Shown piece by piece: positions 55,995 to 64,000 of a stretch of DNA of 64,000 bases; position 1 is the stretch's first letter; the number at the start of each line of letters is the position of its first letter. The notes below the pieces were generated by a model. It worked only from the letters and a program-made list of their open reading frames with translations. It ran no database searches and had not been told where the DNA came from. Source of the stretch: Clostridiales bacterium (lineage in GTDB: Bacteria; Bacillota; Clostridia; Oscillospirales; Oscillospiraceae); contig JALERU010000042.1 of assembly GCA_022764045.1 (NCBI GenBank), positions 20,805 to 84,804 on the forward strand, read 5' to 3'. The position numbers and the translations under genes were made by a program.

Positions 55995-56033
55995 AAACAA
56001 TGTGAATGGCTTTGTCGTTCACATTGTTTTTTT
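55995..56033 (+). terminator. Intrinsic terminator
   Basis: aaacaatgtgaa / ttcacattgttt followed by a T run. Confidence 0.75.
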
Positions 56034-56229
56034 ATTCCGCCAAAACTTCCTTACGTCAGACGCCTGTCCCCTCTCGATTTTAGAACATGCGTTCTACTCA
56101 AATCATAGCACGATCCCCTTTTTCCTGTCAACGCGCTCCCCTCCCCACCCAAAAAGTCCGCTCCAATTTTATGGACAAGTGTACGTTAAAGAAAATTATC
56201 TTCCCGGAAACCAGAAAGAGCAGGGTAGC

Positions 56230-56545
56230 CGCATTGAAACTTTGGGGTGGGTGCGTCTATTACCCACGCCGAGAAATCCTCAACGCTCACCCTCATCCGA
56301 CCCGGCTTCGCCGGCCCACCTTCAGAGCAAAGGAATTTTTTGATTTGATCTCCAACTGTCCCCCGGACAGTTGGACCCCCAGGGGAAGGCGATTGGCATA
56401 TCCTGTATGGCTTACTGTAGAAAACTACCGTAGCACCCCCCCAACGTAGCCTAATAGCGTAGGCTTCCCCTCGGGGGGAAGCTGTCAGCGCAGCTGACTG
56501 ATGAGGGGGCGATTTCGTAGTATCGGCGGGTAGAAGAATACGGTT
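56230..56545. repeat. REP-like unit with internal insertion
   Basis: ccctcatccgacccggcttcgccgg...[insert]...aggggaaggcgattggca and ggcttcccctcgggggga...gatgaggggg. Confidence 0.85.
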
Positions 56546-56753
56546 TTTGCCGAAGCGTATCACCTTTCCTCCTCCCCTCTCCCCCTCGGGCAAGGGCCAC
56601 AAAATACCGGGGAGATTCCTTAGGATTACGCTGACCGGGCGATAGAGGAAATCCGCTGCCCTGCCCAGAAAACTTTTCCCATTGCTTTTTCCCCCATCCT
56701 TTGTCATAATGAGAACAGAAAGCGACACAATCCACTGAGAAGGAGTGCGTTCC

Positions 56754-57347
56754 ATGAAACAGACGATCATTTCCCTGGGCCGGCAGGTGGGCAGCGGCGG
56801 CCACAAGATCGCGGCCGCCCTGGCCCAACGACTTTCCCTGCCCCTGTATGACAAAAACCTGATCGCCGAGATCGCCGCCCAGCGGGACCTGGACCCCAGC
56901 GTCCTGCGCCAATACGAAGAAGCTCCCAAGAATCCCTTCCTCTCCCGAAGCGTCCGTGGGCTCAGCAACTCCGCCCAGGCCGGGTTAGCCAGCATGCAGT
57001 TCCGCTTTTTGCGGGAAAAGGCCGCCAGCGGCGAATCCTTCCTGATCCTGGGCCGCTGCTCCGACTATATCCTGCGGGAATACGAGGGGCTCATCTCCAT
57101 TTTCGTCAGCGGTGATTTGGAGGACCGGGTGGCCAGCATCCAGCAGGCCCATGGCTTCTCCCAGGAGGAGGCCTTGGACTTCATCCGCACCGGCGACAAA
57201 CGCCGGGCAACCTATCACAGCGAGCACTGCCCCACCCAGTGGGGCCACGGCGACGCCTATGACCTGACCATCAACTCCTCCCGCTTAGGGCTGGAAGGAA
57301 CCACCGACTTTTTGGCCGAGTACCTCCGCCGACGCATGGAGAAGTAA
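56754..57347 (+). CDS. Cytidylate kinase-like family protein
   Basis: ISLGRQVGSGG, YDKNLI, ILGRCSDY, DKRRATY, YDLTINS. Confidence 0.88.
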   Translation: MKQTIISLGRQVGSGGHKIAAALAQRLSLPLYDKNLIAEIAAQRDLDPSVLRQYEEAPKNPFLSRSVRGLSNSAQAGLASMQFRFLREKAASGESFLILGRCSDYILREYEGLISIFVSGDLEDRVASIQQAHGFSQEEALDFIRTGDKRRATYHSEHCPTQWGHGDAYDLTINSSRLGLEGTTDFLAEYLRRRMEK

Positions 57348-57359
57348 CCCCCCACGCAA

Positions 57360-57399
57360 AACCGCCGCCGCGAGAGCTCTCGCGGCGGCGGTTCCTTTT
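57360..57399. terminator. Bidirectional terminator
   Basis: aaccgccgccgcgaga / tctcgcggcggcggtt. Confidence 0.8.
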
Positions 57400-58270
57400 A
57401 TGGGGCCTGTTTCAGCTGGATCAAGACCACCTCGGGGCGGTTGTTGAACCGAAAGGGGAAGAGGCTGTTGCCAATGCCCCGGCTGACCACCATGCTGGTG
57501 GCCCCCTGGATGTAACATCCCCCGTCATATTTGGGGTGCAGCCCCTGGCCGGGGGCCAACAACCCGCCCACCCAGGGCAGCCGGAATTGGCCCCCGTGGG
57601 TGTGGCCGCTGAGGACCAGGTCCACCCCGCTTTCCCGGTAGACTGCAAACCATTCCGGCCGGTGGGAGAGCAGGATGATATAGGGGGCTTCCTGTCCCAC
57701 AAGCCCTTGCAGCTTGCCTCTCATCACCGTTTTCGCATCCCTCCGTAAATCGTCCCTCTGAAAGCTGGGGTCCTCCACCCCCAGTAAGGTGATCTCTGCC
57801 CCCGCACGCTGAATCGTAACTGCCTCATCGGTGAGGACAACAATTCCCCTGTCCCACAGCCCCTCCCTGAGCCTGCCGTACTCAGGCACCCGCGCCTCGT
57901 GGTTGCCCGGAACATAGTAGCAGGGTGCGATCTTCCCGGTTTCCGCCGCAAAGTCCAGGGCCACGGTGAGGTCAGTCCGGCGGGAGTCAATCAGGTCTCC
58001 GGTAATGGCGATGAGGTCCGGCCGGGCCCTTTCCAGCATCCAGAGGAGCTTTTTGTTTCCTTTCCCCAGTTGGGCATTGTGCAGGTCCGAAACCTGGGCA
58101 ATGCGATAGCCGGAAAATTGCTTTGGCAATTTCCCGCTGGAAAGGGTGTAAGTGGTCAGCACAAGGGCGGTGTTGCCCCAGGCGATCCAACCGGCCAGAG
58201 CCCCGGCGGCGAGGCCGCCCAGGGGAAGAAGCCCTGCTTTCAGAACCGTCTTTTTCATCCAATCTCTCAC
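57398..58270 (-). CDS. Membrane-anchored metallophosphoesterase
   Basis: SDLH, TGD, GNHE, LSH, SGHTHGG. Confidence 0.92.
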   Translation of the reverse strand: MRDWMKKTVLKAGLLPLGGLAAGALAGWIAWGNTALVLTTYTLSSGKLPKQFSGYRIAQVSDLHNAQLGKGNKKLLWMLERARPDLIAITGDLIDSRRTDLTVALDFAAETGKIAPCYYVPGNHEARVPEYGRLREGLWDRGIVVLTDEAVTIQRAGAEITLLGVEDPSFQRDDLRRDAKTVMRGKLQGLVGQEAPYIILLSHRPEWFAVYRESGVDLVLSGHTHGGQFRLPWVGGLLAPGQGLHPKYDGGCYIQGATSMVVSRGIGNSLFPFRFNNRPEVVLIQLKQAP

Positions 58271-58444
58271 TCCGTCATGTTTTTTCGTTTTGTTTTTTAA
58301 TCGCGCTCACTTTTAGTCCATTATAACACTGTGAAGTTTCCCCTTCAAACCTTTGCTCTCCGGCATAAAAAATTCTGTTTCCGAAAACCCTCTCATTGCA
58401 TCCCCCAAAAAATCGTGGTACCCTATGCCCAGGAGGTGACTTTT

Positions 58445-58924
58445 ATGGCAAAGGAAGACCAGAAGGATTTTAACGCCATGCTCCAGAAAAGCAACGGCAT
58501 GCCCAAGATCCAGATCGTCACGGACCCGAAGACCATTGAAAAATACGGCGGCAGCCGGATGTATTTCGCCCCGCCCCTGGCCTATGACCGGGCCATGAAG
58601 CAGGTGCCCCCAGGAAAGGTGATCACTGTGGGGGAGCTCCGCCGGCACTTTGCCGCCCTGGGGGGCGCCGACTTCACCGACCCCATCACCGCCGGCATCT
58701 TTGTCTCCATCGCCGCCTGGGCCAGCCACCAGCGGACCCAGGACAAGACGCCCTATTGGCGAACTCTGAAAGCGGGCGGCGAGCTCAACCCCAAGTACCC
58801 TGGCGGGATCGAAGCCCAGCGGGCCAAACTGGAGGCCGAGGGCCACACCATCGTGCAAAAGGGCCGGAAGACGCTCAAATACTTTGTCAAAGATTATGAA
58901 CAAGCCCTCTTTTCTCTGGCGTAG
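58445..58924 (+). CDS. MGMT/alkyltransferase-like family protein lacking the acceptor Cys
   Basis: VPPGKVITVGEL, TPYWR in place of PCHR, AQRAKLEAEG; GGAGG RBS. Confidence 0.75.
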   Translation: MAKEDQKDFNAMLQKSNGMPKIQIVTDPKTIEKYGGSRMYFAPPLAYDRAMKQVPPGKVITVGELRRHFAALGGADFTDPITAGIFVSIAAWASHQRTQDKTPYWRTLKAGGELNPKYPGGIEAQRAKLEAEGHTIVQKGRKTLKYFVKDYEQALFSLA

Positions 58925-58963
58925 CCCCCGCCACTTTGGGAGAGCAAAGCGTTAAATTCCCTC

Positions 58964-58992
58964 TTGACAACTGAGGAAAAGCGTGATAAAAT
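58964..58992 (+). promoter_or_regulatory. Sigma-A promoter of the aro operon
   Basis: TTGACA-17-TGaTAAAAT. Confidence 0.8.
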
Positions 58993-59023
58993 AGGCCAGT
59001 CATAAAGGAAGGAATGGTTTCTG

Positions 59024-59104
59024 ATGAACAAGCAGACCATCAACATGAACAGCGCATTCGCCTTTACCTACTATTACTTTATCACCTGCAAGGGAATAGA
59101 GTAA
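59024..59104 (+). CDS. Phe/Tyr-rich leader peptide MNKQTINMNSAFAFTYYYFITCKGIE
   Basis: AAGGAAGGA upstream; codons TTC GCC TTT ACC TAC TAT TAC TTT at 59057-59080. Confidence 0.8.
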   Translation: MNKQTINMNSAFAFTYYYFITCKGIE

Positions 59105-59160
59105 TGGCAATTTGTGCTGGATAAAACCCATGGTCCTTCTTTTTGAAGAAAGAGAACGAC

Positions 59161-59198
59161 ACGCCACACAGATTCCGTTCTGTGTGGCGTTTTTATTT
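59161..59198 (+). terminator. Attenuator terminator
   Basis: acgccacacaga / tctgtgtggcgt 12-bp stem + TTTTATTT, 60 nt before aroF. Confidence 0.85.
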
Positions 59199-59257
59199 GA
59201 CCAAATTCGCCCCCTGGAACACCCCCAGCGGAGCTTACATCGAAAGGAGTTTTTCTT

Positions 59258-60265
59258 ATGATCGCAGTCTTGAAACCCGGCGCCTCCCCCGAGCGCACCC
59301 AGCACCTGATCCACTGGCTGGAAGAGCAGAACTTAGGGGTCCATGTCTCCCAGGGAGAGTACCAGACCGTTCTGGGCCTCATCGGCAACACCGACAAGGT
59401 GGACATGGAGATGATCCAGAGCCTGGACATTGTGGAGACCGTCACTCGGGTCTCCGACCCCTTTAAGGCCGTCAACCGGAAGTTCCATCCCGACAACTCC
59501 ATCATCCAAGTGGGCCCCGCCGCCATCGGCGGCGGCCACTTCGCCCTCATCGCCGGCCCCTGCTCGGTGGAAACCGAAGACCAGATCACCTACGTGGCCC
59601 AGGAAGTGAAAAAGGCCGGAGCCACCTTCCTGCGGGGGGGCGCCTTCAAGCCCCGCACCTCCCCCTATGATTTCCAGGGCCTGGGCGCCGAGGGCATCCG
59701 CCTGCTGCTGGAGGCCAAGAAGGCCACCGGCCTGCCCATCGTCACCGAGCTTATGGACATCCGCAACCTGGACCTCTTTGAAGAAGTGGACGTGATCCAG
59801 GTGGGCGCCCGGAACACCCAGAACTTCGATATGCTCAAGGAGCTGGGGAAAACCAACAAGCCCATCCTCCTCAAGCGGGGCCTGGCCGGCACCATCAAGG
59901 AGCTGCTCATGAGCGCCGAGTACATCATGGCCAACGGCAATGAGAACGTCATTCTCTGCGAGCGGGGCATCCGCACTTATGAGTCCACCTACACCCGGAA
60001 CACCCTGGACCTGTCCGTGGTCCCCGTGCTCAAGGGCCTGACCCACCTGCCCGTGGTGGTGGACCCCAGCCACGCCACCGGCCACGCCAACCTGGTGGAG
60101 CCCATGGCCATGGCCGCCGCCGCCGCCGGGGCCGACGGCATTATGATCGAGGTCCACAACGATCCTCCCCACGCCCTGTGCGACGGCGCCCAGTCCCTGA
60201 CCCCGGAGGAATTCGCCCACACCGCCAAGAAGATCCTGAAGATCCGGGAGGCGATGGAGGGATGA
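59258..60265 (+). CDS. aroF: DAHP synthase (type I-beta with N-terminal regulatory domain)
   Basis: AGPCSVE, RGGAFKPRTSPY, QVGARN, KRG, CERGIR, DPSH. Confidence 0.93.
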   Translation: MIAVLKPGASPERTQHLIHWLEEQNLGVHVSQGEYQTVLGLIGNTDKVDMEMIQSLDIVETVTRVSDPFKAVNRKFHPDNSIIQVGPAAIGGGHFALIAGPCSVETEDQITYVAQEVKKAGATFLRGGAFKPRTSPYDFQGLGAEGIRLLLEAKKATGLPIVTELMDIRNLDLFEEVDVIQVGARNTQNFDMLKELGKTNKPILLKRGLAGTIKELLMSAEYIMANGNENVILCERGIRTYESTYTRNTLDLSVVPVLKGLTHLPVVVDPSHATGHANLVEPMAMAAAAAGADGIMIEVHNDPPHALCDGAQSLTPEEFAHTAKKILKIREAMEG

Positions 60266-61098
60266 CCGTCGGTATCATCGGCCTGGGCCTCATTGGAGGC
60301 TCCCTGGCCAAGGCCTTCCGCCGGACCGCCGGCATCACTGTTCTGGGCTGGGACACCGACAGCAGCATTGTCGAGTTCGCCGAGATCGCCCAGGCCATCC
60401 ACGGCCCCCTCACCGATGAGCGGCTGAAGGAGCTGGACCTTCTTCTCCTGGCCACCTACCCCGAGGCTGTGGTGGCCCACATGGAGCGCCTGGCCCCCCT
60501 GCTGGACAAGGACACCATGGTCATCGACTGTGCCGGCACCAAAGAGAAGGTCTGCTCCGGGGTCTTCCCCCTGGCAGAACAATACGGCTTTCCATTCCTG
60601 GGCGGCCACCCCATGGCGGGCACCCATTACTCCGGCTTCAAATACAGCCGGGCCGATCTCTTCGACGGCGCCCCCATGGTGATCGTGCCCCCCAACTTCG
60701 ACGACATCCGCCTGCTGGACAAGGCCAAGCGCCTGCTGGAGCCCGTGGGCTTCGGGCGGATCTCCATCACCACCGCCCGGGAGCATGACCAGCGCATCGC
60801 CTTTACCTCTCAGATGGCCCACGTGGTCTCCAACGCCTATATTAAAAGCCCCACCGCCCGCAGCCACGACGGTTTCTCCGCCGGCAGCTACAAGGACCTC
60901 ACCCGGGTGGCCTGGCTCAACCCCGCCATGTGGGCGGAGCTCTTTTTGGAAAACAAGGAAAACCTGCTCTTTGAGCTGGACACCCTCATCCAGAATCTGG
61001 AGCAGTACAAAAAGGCCATGGAGGCCGAAGACTTTGAAGCCCTCCGCCAGCTGCTGGACGAGGGCCGGCGGATCAAGGAGGAGGTGGACGGCCAGTGA
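60262..61098 (+). CDS. tyrA: Prephenate dehydrogenase
   Basis: IGLGLIGGS, GGHPMAG, HDQRIAFTSQMAH, LTRVA. Confidence 0.9.
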   Translation: MTVGIIGLGLIGGSLAKAFRRTAGITVLGWDTDSSIVEFAEIAQAIHGPLTDERLKELDLLLLATYPEAVVAHMERLAPLLDKDTMVIDCAGTKEKVCSGVFPLAEQYGFPFLGGHPMAGTHYSGFKYSRADLFDGAPMVIVPPNFDDIRLLDKAKRLLEPVGFGRISITTAREHDQRIAFTSQMAHVVSNAYIKSPTARSHDGFSAGSYKDLTRVAWLNPAMWAELFLENKENLLFELDTLIQNLEQYKKAMEAEDFEALRQLLDEGRRIKEEVDGQ

Positions 61099-62153
61099 CC
61101 ACTGTCACCGTGAAGGCCTCTCAGACCTATGAGGTCAAGATCGGCCACCGGCTGCTGGACACCCTGGGCCAGGAGGCCGCTGCCCTGCTGAAGGGCCGCC
61201 AGGCGGCCATTGTCTCCGACTCCAACGTAGCCCCCCTCTACCTGGACCGGGTCCGGGCCAGCCTGGAGGGGGCGGGTTTTCAGGTCTGCTCCTTCGTCTT
61301 CCCCGCGGGGGAGGAACACAAAAACGGCCAGACTTACCTGGACCTGCTGGAATTTCTGGCCCAGCGCCACATCACCCGGGCCGACGCCCTGGTGGCCCTG
61401 GGGGGCGGCGTGGTGGGGGACCTCACGGGCTTCGCCGCCGCCACCTTCCTGCGGGGGATCGCCTTTGTGCAGCTCCCCACCACCCTGCTGGCCGCCGTGG
61501 ACGCCTCTGTGGGGGGTAAGACCGCCATCGACCTGAAAAACGGCAAGAACCTGGCCGGGGCCTTTTACCAGCCCAAGGCCGTCCTGTGTGACCTGGACAC
61601 CCTGGCCACCCTCCCCCAGGCCGTCTTCGCCGACGGCTGCGCCGAGGTCATCAAATACGGCATGATCGGGGACCCCGGCCTGCTGGAGCAATTGGAGACC
61701 ACCGACTTTCAGGCCGACCCCGAGGCCATCGTCGCCCGGTGCATCGCCCAGAAGCGGGACCTGGTGGAGCAGGACGAGTTCGACACCGGAGCCCGGCAGC
61801 TGCTGAACCTGGGCCACACCGTGGGCCACGGCATTGAGGCCTGCAGCTCCTATCAGCTCTCCCACGGCAAGGCGGTGGCCATTGGCATGATCCTGGTCAC
61901 CCGGGCGGCGGTGGCCCTGGGCAAGTGCCCGGCGGAAGTCCTGCCCCGGCTGCAAGGGCTTGTGCGCAAATACGGCCTGCCGGAGGCCACGGAATACCCC
62001 GCCCGAGACCTTTATGAGAAAACCCTGTCGGACAAAAAGCGCGCCGGCAACACCATCTCCCTGGTGGTTCCCACCGCCTGGGGCAAGAGCCAGTTGACCC
62101 CCATCCCCGTGGCGGAACTGCTGGACTGGATCGAAAAGGGGCTGAGCCTATGA
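61095..62153 (+). CDS. aroB: 3-dehydroquinate synthase
   Basis: GEEHKN, GGGVVGD, PTTLLAAVDASVGGK, LNLGHT, HGKAV. Confidence 0.95.
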   Translation: MTTVTVKASQTYEVKIGHRLLDTLGQEAAALLKGRQAAIVSDSNVAPLYLDRVRASLEGAGFQVCSFVFPAGEEHKNGQTYLDLLEFLAQRHITRADALVALGGGVVGDLTGFAAATFLRGIAFVQLPTTLLAAVDASVGGKTAIDLKNGKNLAGAFYQPKAVLCDLDTLATLPQAVFADGCAEVIKYGMIGDPGLLEQLETTDFQADPEAIVARCIAQKRDLVEQDEFDTGARQLLNLGHTVGHGIEACSSYQLSHGKAVAIGMILVTRAAVALGKCPAEVLPRLQGLVRKYGLPEATEYPARDLYEKTLSDKKRAGNTISLVVPTAWGKSQLTPIPVAELLDWIEKGLSL

Positions 62154-63430
62154 CTGTCACCATCCAAGCCGGGTCTGCCACCGGCACCCTGGCCGCCATT
62201 CCCTCCAAGTCGGCGGCCCACCGGCTGCTCATCTGCGCCGCCCTGGCGGACAGACCCACCCAGGTCACCTGTCCCCAGAGCTCCCAGGACATCGCCGCCA
62301 CCATTCGGTGCCTCACCGGGCTGGGGGCAGACATCCAGCCTCGGGAGGACGGCTACCAGGTGACCCCCATCCCCCGGGACAAGCCTGCGGAGGCCTGCCT
62401 GCTGGACTGCGGGGAGAGCGGCTCTACCCTCCGCTTCCTGCTGCCTGTAGCGGGGGCTTTGGGCGCGGAAGCCACCTTCCAAATGGCCGGCCGGTTGGCC
62501 CAGCGGCCTATGGGGCCCCTCACCGACCAGCTCCAGGCCAACGGCTGCGCCATTGACTTAAAGGAAGGGGAAAAAACCTTGACCATCACCGGCCAGCTTC
62601 AGCCGGGAACCTATACTTTGCCGGGGGACGTCTCCTCCCAGTTCATCTCCGGCCTTCTCTTCGCCCTGCCCCTGCTGGGCCGGGCGAGCAAGCTGACGGT
62701 CACCGGCCAGCGGGAGTCGGCAAGCTATATTCGCCTCACCCTCCGGGCCCTGGCTGGCTTTGGGCTGACCCCCCAGGAAGAGGCCGACGGCTGGACCATT
62801 CCCGCCCAGAGCTACACCAGCCCGGGCCTGGTCCGGGTGGAGGGGGACTGGTCCAACGCCGCCCCCTGGCTGTGCCTGGGAGCCCTTGGGGGCGAGAGCG
62901 TCACCGTCAAGGGCATGGACCTGGACTCCCTCCAGGGAGACCGGAAGATCTGCCAGGTCCTCTCCCGCATGGGGGCCCGGATCAGCTGCACCGCCGGCCG
63001 GGTGACCTCCCTTCCGGGTCAGCGCACCCCCACCCACATCGACGCCCGGGACATCCCCGACCTGGTCCCCGTTCTGGCCGCCGTGGCCGCCGCCACCCCC
63101 GGCACCACCACCATTACCGGGGCCGCCCGGCTGCGGCTGAAGGAGTCCGACCGGCTGAAGACCACCGCCCGGACCCTGAACGCCCTGGGGGGCCAGGTGG
63201 AGGAGACCGAGGACGGCCTCGTCATCCACGGCAAAGCCCAGCTCACCGGCGGCACGGTGGACGCCGCCGGCGACCACCGGATCGCCATGGCCGCCGCCGT
63301 GGCCTCGGGGGCCTGCGCCGGTCCCGTCACCGTCACCGGGGCCCAGGCGGTGGAGAAATCCTACCCCACCTTCTGGCAAGAACTGCGGAAACTGGGAAAA
63401 TCCGTGGACGAAACCCCCGATCACCCTTGA
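62150..63430 (+). CDS. aroA: EPSP synthase
   Basis: SKSAAHR, CGESGSTLRF, SSQFISGLL, LRLKESDR, DHRIAM, KSYP. Confidence 0.95.
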   Translation: MTVTIQAGSATGTLAAIPSKSAAHRLLICAALADRPTQVTCPQSSQDIAATIRCLTGLGADIQPREDGYQVTPIPRDKPAEACLLDCGESGSTLRFLLPVAGALGAEATFQMAGRLAQRPMGPLTDQLQANGCAIDLKEGEKTLTITGQLQPGTYTLPGDVSSQFISGLLFALPLLGRASKLTVTGQRESASYIRLTLRALAGFGLTPQEEADGWTIPAQSYTSPGLVRVEGDWSNAAPWLCLGALGGESVTVKGMDLDSLQGDRKICQVLSRMGARISCTAGRVTSLPGQRTPTHIDARDIPDLVPVLAAVAAATPGTTTITGAARLRLKESDRLKTTARTLNALGGQVEETEDGLVIHGKAQLTGGTVDAAGDHRIAMAAAVASGACAGPVTVTGAQAVEKSYPTFWQELRKLGKSVDETPDHP

Positions 63431-63467
63431 CGGACCGCCCAGGATATTTCATAATGAGGACAGCGCT

Positions 63468-64000
63468 ATGAGCAGTATTTATCACGGTCAGCTGACCGTC
63501 TCCATCTTCGGCCAGTCCCACGCCCCGGCCATCGGGGTGACGGTGGACGGCTTGCCCGCCGGAGAGGCCATCGACTTAGAGGAGCTCCAGGCATTTCTCC
63601 GCCGCCGGGCCCCCGGCACCGGGGACTGGTCTACCCCCCGCAAGGAGGGGGACCAGCCGGAATTTCTCTCGGGCCTGGACCAGGGTCACACCTGTGGGGC
63701 CCCCCTGGCGGCCATCATCCGCAACACCAACACCCGGTCCAAGGATTACTCCAACCTGCGGGACATCCCCCGGCCCGGCCACGCCGACTTCACCGCCCAG
63801 GTGAAGTACGGCGGCTTCCAGGACGTGGCCGGCGGCGGCCACTTCTCCGGCCGCCTCACCGCCCCTCTGTGCATCGCCGGGGGGATCTGCAAGCAGATTT
63901 TAGCCCGCCAGGGGATTTATGTGGGGGCCCACATCGCCGCCATCGGCGGCATCCCCGACGCGCCCTATGACCCGGTGGACCTGACCCAAGAGGCCCTGCT
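63468..64000 (+). CDS. aroC: Chorismate synthase (5' part, runs off the window)
   Basis: IFGQSH, RRRAPG, RPGHAD, GGGHFSGRLT; absent from the ORF track because no stop codon lies in the window. Confidence 0.93.
   Translation, partial: MSSIYHGQLTVSIFGQSHAPAIGVTVDGLPAGEAIDLEELQAFLRRRAPGTGDWSTPRKEGDQPEFLSGLDQGHTCGAPLAAIIRNTNTRSKDYSNLRDIPRPGHADFTAQVKYGGFQDVAGGGHFSGRLTAPLCIAGGICKQILARQGIYVGAHIAAIGGIPDAPYDPVDLTQEAL

Follow-up and report, generated by a model that had tools for sequence, protein, structure and literature searches.

The aro operon that runs to the 3' end of the window (the whole stretch of 64,000 nucleotides that was analysed) can be assigned with high confidence to a classical ribosome-mediated leader-peptide transcription attenuator, placed 5' of a cluster that includes the Tyr and Phe branches. 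A ribosome-stalling attenuator with Phe and Tyr codons had been proposed in a first-pass annotation of this DNA, and that reading is supported by the anatomy of the leader, its conservation and its gene context. Together with the mutually exclusive folds obtained in silico, these are the grounds on which it very probably holds.

The leader carries a translatable ORF with a Shine-Dalgarno-like site (SD) and a start codon, a cluster of cognate codons, a terminator before the first gene, and regulatory codons that lie within the segment sequestering region 2 (Table 1). For the promoter at 58964-58992, 0.4 such sites were expected in shuffles of the region, and the predicted transcription start lies near 59000. 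Six of the eight codons in the uORF run are aromatic (three Phe, three Tyr), with both synonymous codons of Phe and both of Tyr present. The uORF stop TAA (59102-59104) falls within region 2, which also contains the near-invariant box GTAATGGnAATTTGTGCTG. The terminator (59161-59190) is the sole terminator-like site within 58300-59700, and its stem has 12 bp, of which seven are G-C pairs. Between this terminator and aroF no separate strong promoter was found, the single match there being weak (9 of 12 positions). The promoter, the 26-codon F/Y-rich uORF, the 1:2 hairpin (59071-59082/59096-59107) and the 3:4 terminator (59161-59172/59179-59190) with its T tract had all been called in the first-pass annotation; each was found where it had been placed, the 1:2 hairpin as part of the MFE fold of the leader.

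Table 1. Coordinates of the leader elements and of the aro genes within the window.
Feature	Position	Strand	Details
Sigma-70-type promoter	58964..58992	+	TTGACA-17-TAAAAT, extended -10 TG; 11/12 matches
Shine-Dalgarno-like site AAGGAAGGA	59006..59014	+	9 nt 5' of the uORF ATG; read from sequence
Leader peptide uORF	59024..59104	+	26 codons plus TAA; MNKQTINMNSAFAFTYYYFITCKGIE; kept in 29/29 testable same-genus loci
Regulatory codon run F-A-F-T-Y-Y-Y-F	59057..59080	+	codons 12-19: TTC GCC TTT ACC TAC TAT TAC TTT
Region 1, 5' arm of the 1:2 hairpin	59071..59082	+	built from Tyr/Phe codons
Region 2	59096..59120	+	59096-59107 pairs with region 1 and contains the stop; 59104-59120 pairs with region 3
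Spacer hairpin	59133..59160	+	inside the antiterminator loop; dG -9.8, z -3.3
Regions 3 and 4, intrinsic terminator	59161..59198	+	stem 59161-59172/59179-59190, loop of 6, then TTTTTATTT
aroF, DAHP synthase with N-terminal ferredoxin-like domain	59258..60265	+	PF00793 6e-78, PF18152 4e-23
tyrA, prephenate dehydrogenase	60262..61098	+	start overlaps the aroF stop (ATGA)
aroB, 3-dehydroquinate synthase	61095..62153	+	
aroA, EPSP synthase	62150..63430	+	
aroC, chorismate synthase	63468..64000	+	extends off the window end

The genes downstream are tightly packed, with overlapping start and stop codons at aroF/tyrA, tyrA/aroB and aroB/aroA, and with aroC beginning 37 nt 3' of the aroA stop; the SD of aroF (AAGGAG) lies at 59244-59249. 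Past the window, on the same contig, come pheA (chorismate mutase, prephenate dehydratase, ACT; CM-PDT-ACT), then an aroE/aroK fusion and aroQ, the type II dehydroquinase gene, which gives the order aroF-tyrA-aroB-aroA-aroC-pheA-aroE/K-aroQ. As the cluster reaches pheA, aroE/aroK and aroQ, the leader precedes all seven shikimate steps as well as the Tyr and Phe branch enzymes, and the earlier proposal of a gate on the whole shikimate pathway is upheld. This gene content fits a signal composed of Phe and Tyr and lacking Trp.

The alternative structures of the leader were explored by folding computations in which the ribosome was modelled as a mask on the RNA. The whole leader folded at -67.8 kcal/mol, compared to -43.8 kcal/mol for shuffles (z = -5.96), and its MFE structure consisted of the 1:2 hairpin, the spacer hairpin and the terminator. 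Duplex energies were -16.8 kcal/mol for 1:2, -15.8 kcal/mol for 2:3 and -22.8 kcal/mol for 3:4, the 1:3, 1:4 and 2:4 duplexes being weak. In the ribosome-free model, 1:2 and 3:4 folded. When 59024-59092 was masked to represent a stalled ribosome and the RNA ended at 59178 (no region 4), the MFE structure was the 15-bp antiterminator with two bulged C, enclosing the spacer hairpin; this is the 2:3 pairing (59104-59120/59164-59178) that the first-pass annotation had drawn, recovered as the MFE with region 1 masked. With a ribosome at the stop (mask through 59117), the terminator folded.

A course of events can be proposed on this basis. Transcription would start at about 59000, and a ribosome would load on the 26-codon uORF. 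With abundant Phe-tRNA and Tyr-tRNA, it would reach the TAA with its footprint over region 2; because this stop lies inside region 2, most of the antiterminator's 5' arm would be hidden under a terminating ribosome, so that the 3:4 terminator could fold and RNA polymerase would halt at the T tract near 59195. A leader that is not translated would pair 1:2, leaving 3:4 free to form, and termination would also be expected. If charged Tyr-tRNA or Phe-tRNA were short, the ribosome would stall on the TAC-TAT-TAC-TTT codons that form region 1, thereby freeing region 2, which would pair with region 3 once the latter is made; no terminator would then form, and the operon would be transcribed. We infer the stalling response, which of Phe and Tyr counts in it, and the in vivo 3' end near 59195.

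The leader is well conserved within the genus (Evtepia), where its DNA was matched in 34 of 36 genomes. All 30 loci that were fetched lay directly 5' of aroF, and the F/Y-rich uORF was present in all 29 testable ones (L020 is incomplete and was not counted). The N-terminal half of the leader peptide varied freely across the genus; the aromatic run varied in sequence and register and remained aromatic (FAFTYYYF, FYFTYYYF, FFAYRYF, FYAYYYF, FFYGYYYF, FFFGYYYFF, SYYYY, with YYYYYY also found in relatives). Conservation of an F/Y-rich uORF with synonymous variation upstream of aroF in relatives, as the attenuator reading had been expected to entail, was thus observed, with all four Phe and Tyr codons in use. 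The C-terminal residues KGI-G/K/E were fairly conserved in the genus. The spacer hairpin (59133-59160) reached dG <= -5 in 83% of the genus set, with a variable sequence on a CTTCTT...AAGAAG theme; in other genera it was mostly absent, and the spacers there were about 10 nt shorter.

Support for the paired regions came from a covariation alignment of 33 leader sequences. Stems 1:2 and 3:4 taken together were 94.8% paired, with eight pairs changed on both sides, a result equalled in 0 of 500 shuffles, and the slid-register controls reached 35-52% pairing. Helix 1 (1:2) by itself was 94.9% paired with three pairs changed on both sides, and RNAalifold independently predicted helices 1:2 and 3:4. 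The 2:3 helix was 89% paired, compared to 34-49% when slid, with zero double changes in the genus-level alignment because region 2 is almost invariant. In loci L031-L150 the search pattern itself accounts for part of the strong invariance of AATTTGTGCTG, and an additional constraint could also contribute to it. Pairing of region 2 with the leaders' own terminator arms averaged -13.4 kcal/mol, compared to -7.2 kcal/mol (sd 2.8) for 637 generic terminators of the genome. Leaders ending in GTGCTGG had CCA... terminator arms in 19 of 19 cases, and those with GTGCTGC mostly had C(C/T)GCAC. Pairing of region 2 with an arm of its own class was 2-5 kcal/mol better than pairing across classes, the class association being confounded by phylogeny. 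The covarying stems anticipated by the first-pass annotation were therefore borne out in part: 1:2 and 3:4 showed double changes, whereas 2:3 showed conserved pairing with covariation at the class level only.

Beyond the genus, a pattern scan of the species-genome collection, using stem 1 and the region 2 box as query, matched at least 120 stretches; at least 118 further species-genomes, belonging to Oscillospiraceae, Acutalibacteraceae and related groups, carry the same leader. About two chance matches were expected, and two were seen among the matches listed (a Bacteroidaceae record and a Magasanikbacteria record). Carriers among the matches listed were Faecousia, other Oscillospiraceae, Acutalibacteraceae, Evtepia, [Clostridium] viride DSM 6836 (L059) and other Clostridia, and nearly all the loci listed had an F/Y-rich uORF and a downstream terminator. 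Among 129 unique leaders, 126 had an in-frame ATG and 123 an SD-like site; the peptides had a median length of 22 aa and a median of 8 F+Y residues, Trp represented 0.2% of residues, and all four Phe and Tyr codons were in use. Of the 126 leaders that have an in-frame ATG, 85 stop at a TAA inside GTAAT.

A survey anchored on aroF, and hence without pattern bias, drew on 23 families of the order and took in the regions 5' of 80 aroF genes. In 35 of these 80 regions there was a uORF with 6 or more F/Y residues in 8, and in 50 there was one with 5 or more, while none of 80 reverse complements and none of 80 dinucleotide shuffles reached 6 in 8. The encoded peptides were unrelated in sequence (e.g. 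MTKNFAFAYFYFYFYFEK, MSDCSRKNGYFYFSFSFAGYYFGKACSAVEDVRA), and most of these uORFs were followed by a terminator 20-50 nt later and then by aroF. In family f29, no F/Y-rich uORF was found 5' of aroF in seven genomes (L210, L212, L213, L216, L218, L219, L227), and this family probably regulates aroF another way. A different conserved leader ORF, with F, Y and W mixed, lay 5' of aroF in other genera of the window's own family (L200, L202, L204, L211); its motif resembles ...F.F..GWARF.GAG.FGMG (e.g. MSVSNLTTASFLFSYGWARFMGAGLFGMGK), and it may represent a second leader family or a small protein.

The gene 3' of the pattern-found leaders was most often the start of the aroF-tyrA-aroB-aroA-aroC cluster. 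In Acutalibacteraceae, loci with the leader directly 5' of tyrA were found (L038, L057, L066, L070, L080, L083, L097, L112, L114, L115, L117, L122, L131, L150); their leader peptides (e.g. MKQFNAVTYYYYYYFV) can be nearly pure Tyr, and their terminator arm differs (TTGCAGTATAA) and pairs with region 2 in a shifted register. At about eleven loci (L031, L035, L051, L071, L085, L091, L099, L110, L120, L126, L147), the leader preceded a gene for a PF04392 (TrpX-like) ABC substrate-binding protein. These leaders had the same region 2 box and a terminator, and several read the box in frame as S-N-G-C-L-C-C, with the stop further downstream. One more leader with the same box and a terminator (L148) lay 5' of a phenylacetate-CoA-ligase-like gene. 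These targets form a coherent aromatic supply set. We lean, by a small degree, towards regarding the uncatalogued Tyr/Phe attenuators across Oscillospirales as an RNA-level aromatic regulon, comprising the aro operon, tyrA alone, TrpX-like ABC transporters and the phenylacetate-CoA ligase-like gene, which would replace the T-box at the common pathway because the peptide sums two signals.

When 56000-64000 was run through cmscan with all 4227 families of Rfam 15, the leader (58900-59260) gave no match at E<=10, the T-box (RF00230), Phe_leader (RF01859), Trp_leader and leu/phe leader models included. As the same T-box model found 10 sites elsewhere in the genome (C56, C87, C22, C25, C32, C34, C62, C58, C68; loci L232-L241), the first-pass remark that no T-box core is visible here stands. 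The T-box sites precede pheS, tyrS, a TrpB-like gene, a gene for a TrpX-like binding protein, leuA, thrS, alaS, metN, cysE and the gene for a PorC-like 2-oxoacid oxidoreductase subunit. One T-box is located just upstream of the window (C68:20431-20628). The organism has T-boxes for single-amino-acid genes and a leader peptide for the shared pathway, and the ability of a peptide to sum two signals may be the reason for its use there. When the whole 2.55-Mb genome was scanned for uORFs with SD and ATG ending near a terminator, only the aro leader had at least 5 aromatic residues in 8; the same genome-wide scan for amino-acid-run uORFs beside terminators gave no other convincing leader, the remainder being noise. 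The core box occurs once in this genome, and the leader peptide had no Pfam or NCBIfam match. The RNA-library runs yielded only short contigs from relatives (word shares <=0.12). One of them, 195 nt long, covers 59075-59273 and reaches past the terminator into aroF; it is compatible with read-through transcripts but proves little.

The near-invariance of box GTAATGGnAATTTGTGCTG in the genus set, which was found by BLAST and not by pattern, together with a 2:3 helix lacking strict covariation, could also point to a protein- or ligand-responsive switch (T-box-like, TRAP/PTB-like or a riboswitch) acting on the terminator through the box, with the uORF being incidental. However, conservation of the box is explained by its double duty, because both the Tyr codons and the terminator are its pairing partners and the stop codon lies within it. 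An incidental uORF is also difficult to reconcile with the retention of SD, ATG, open frame and F/Y run in 123-126 of 129 unique leaders, or with the F/Y uORFs in sequence-unrelated leaders of other families (controls 0/80); moreover, no Rfam family matched at E<=10. Such a switch is thus very unlikely. Slightly less probable again is a nascent-peptide arrest of the TnaC type, in which the signal that makes the F/Y-rich peptide stall the ribosome would be free Phe or Tyr, or some other small molecule, and not tRNA charging. The fairly conserved C-terminal KGI-G/K/E speaks for it, but the codons of these residues form region 2, so RNA constraints explain their conservation, and outside the F/Y run the peptides differ widely across the family. 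The logic would also be inverted, as a surplus of the amino acid would induce a biosynthetic operon.

Least probable of all, to the point of being hardly credible, is that the uORF is a gene for a small, functional hydrophobic protein and that the hairpin is merely the terminator of that gene, with no role in aroF control. The ORF is short and rich in aromatic residues and has a promoter, an SD and a terminator of its own, as such a gene would. Against this, the uORF always lies immediately 5' of, and co-oriented with, aromatic-supply genes, its N-terminus and length are freely variable, and it matches no Pfam or NCBIfam family; aroF would moreover be left with the weak 9-of-12 promoter match, and the RNA contig of the relative (59075-59273) crosses the terminator into aroF. 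The ribosome-mediated attenuator is therefore retained as the preferred reading.

Teaching usually assigns leader-peptide attenuation to Proteobacteria and Actinobacteria, and T-boxes to Bacillota. In E. coli, pheL and trpL each respond to a single amino acid, and one branch enzyme is under the control of pheL. The present leader shares with E. coli pheL-pheA and trpL-trpEDCBA the regulatory codons in region 1, the stop near region 2, the 2:3 antiterminator and the 3:4 terminator. Unlike them, it has two kinds of regulatory codon and precedes the common pathway and both branches, and it has no sequence or structure-model match to either. A T-box recognises a single uncharged tRNA by direct binding at one specifier codon, and no translation is needed. 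The aro leader resembles the T-box (RF00230) in reading tRNA charging and in the choice between terminator and antiterminator in a 5' leader, but it is without the T-box core, would need a ribosome and could in principle sum two amino acids.

Closer analogues exist upstream of aroF itself. In Corynebacterium glutamicum, the aroR leader peptide (Phe-Tyr-Phe) lies upstream of aroF, and stalling there raises transcription (Neshat et al. 2014, via PMC11802643); according to the latter source, Phe limitation raised transcription and Tyr limitation did not. Sensing of both Phe-tRNA and Tyr-tRNA by the one leader, as put forward for the present locus by the first-pass annotation, is accordingly suggested but not assured, because Tyr supply was without effect in this analogue. 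As far as the description of aroR in that source goes, both are leader peptides with Phe and Tyr codons 5' of a DAHP synthase operon; aroR, which is actinobacterial, has three aromatic codons, whereas here there are six (three Phe, three Tyr) and the codons themselves form stem 1, and the present operon comprises the whole pathway with tyrA and pheA. The uORFC-13-1 motif, a computational prediction with 24 representatives, was described 5' of aroF only from Acholeplasma and from environmental sequences, and was interpreted as sensing Phe by means of a U run (Brewer et al. 2021, PMC8632094). Like the present leader, it combines a predicted uORF, promoter, RBS and aromatic codons, with an intrinsic terminator and aroF following immediately, and its host lineage is related to Bacillota; compared by architecture and gene association only, the present family differs in belonging to Oscillospirales, in being Tyr+Phe-rich and in its conserved box. 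In 2010, leader peptides were regarded as exceptions in Firmicutes (PMC2965389). The published analogues also include His leaders in Bacilli.

A full-text literature search, with subscription journals not covered, did not turn up any account of this family from Oscillospirales or Clostridia. The first-pass remark that no description was known in this lineage agrees with that result; the idea itself is not new, given the aroF analogues in Actinobacteria and Acholeplasma. What is new is the lineage and the family; the mechanism is a textbook one, and its understanding is unchanged. The family is large, widespread in gut Clostridia and uncatalogued in Rfam, Pfam and NCBIfam. Its interest lies in a ribosome-sensing leader on the whole aromatic pathway of abundant gut Clostridia, alongside pheS and tyrS T-boxes. 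If the reading is correct, the annotation of uORFs and leaders missing from these three databases would improve, the leader would constitute a natural two-amino-acid sensor, and prediction of aromatic amino-acid prototrophy and regulation in uncultured gut Oscillospirales would be helped.

On the 5' side of the leader, the gene at 58331-58924 (+) matched only the O6-methylguanine methyltransferase DNA-binding domain, and at 24.4 bits this match fell short of the cut-off of 27. Further upstream, just 3' of a metallophosphoesterase gene (57398-58270, minus), a perfect G+C-rich palindrome (AACCGCCGCCGCGAGAG/CTCTCGCGGCGGCGGTT) followed by TTTT occupies 57356-57397 on the minus strand. It gave weak chance matches to FinP and to a miRNA family, and is most likely the intrinsic terminator of the metallophosphoesterase gene.
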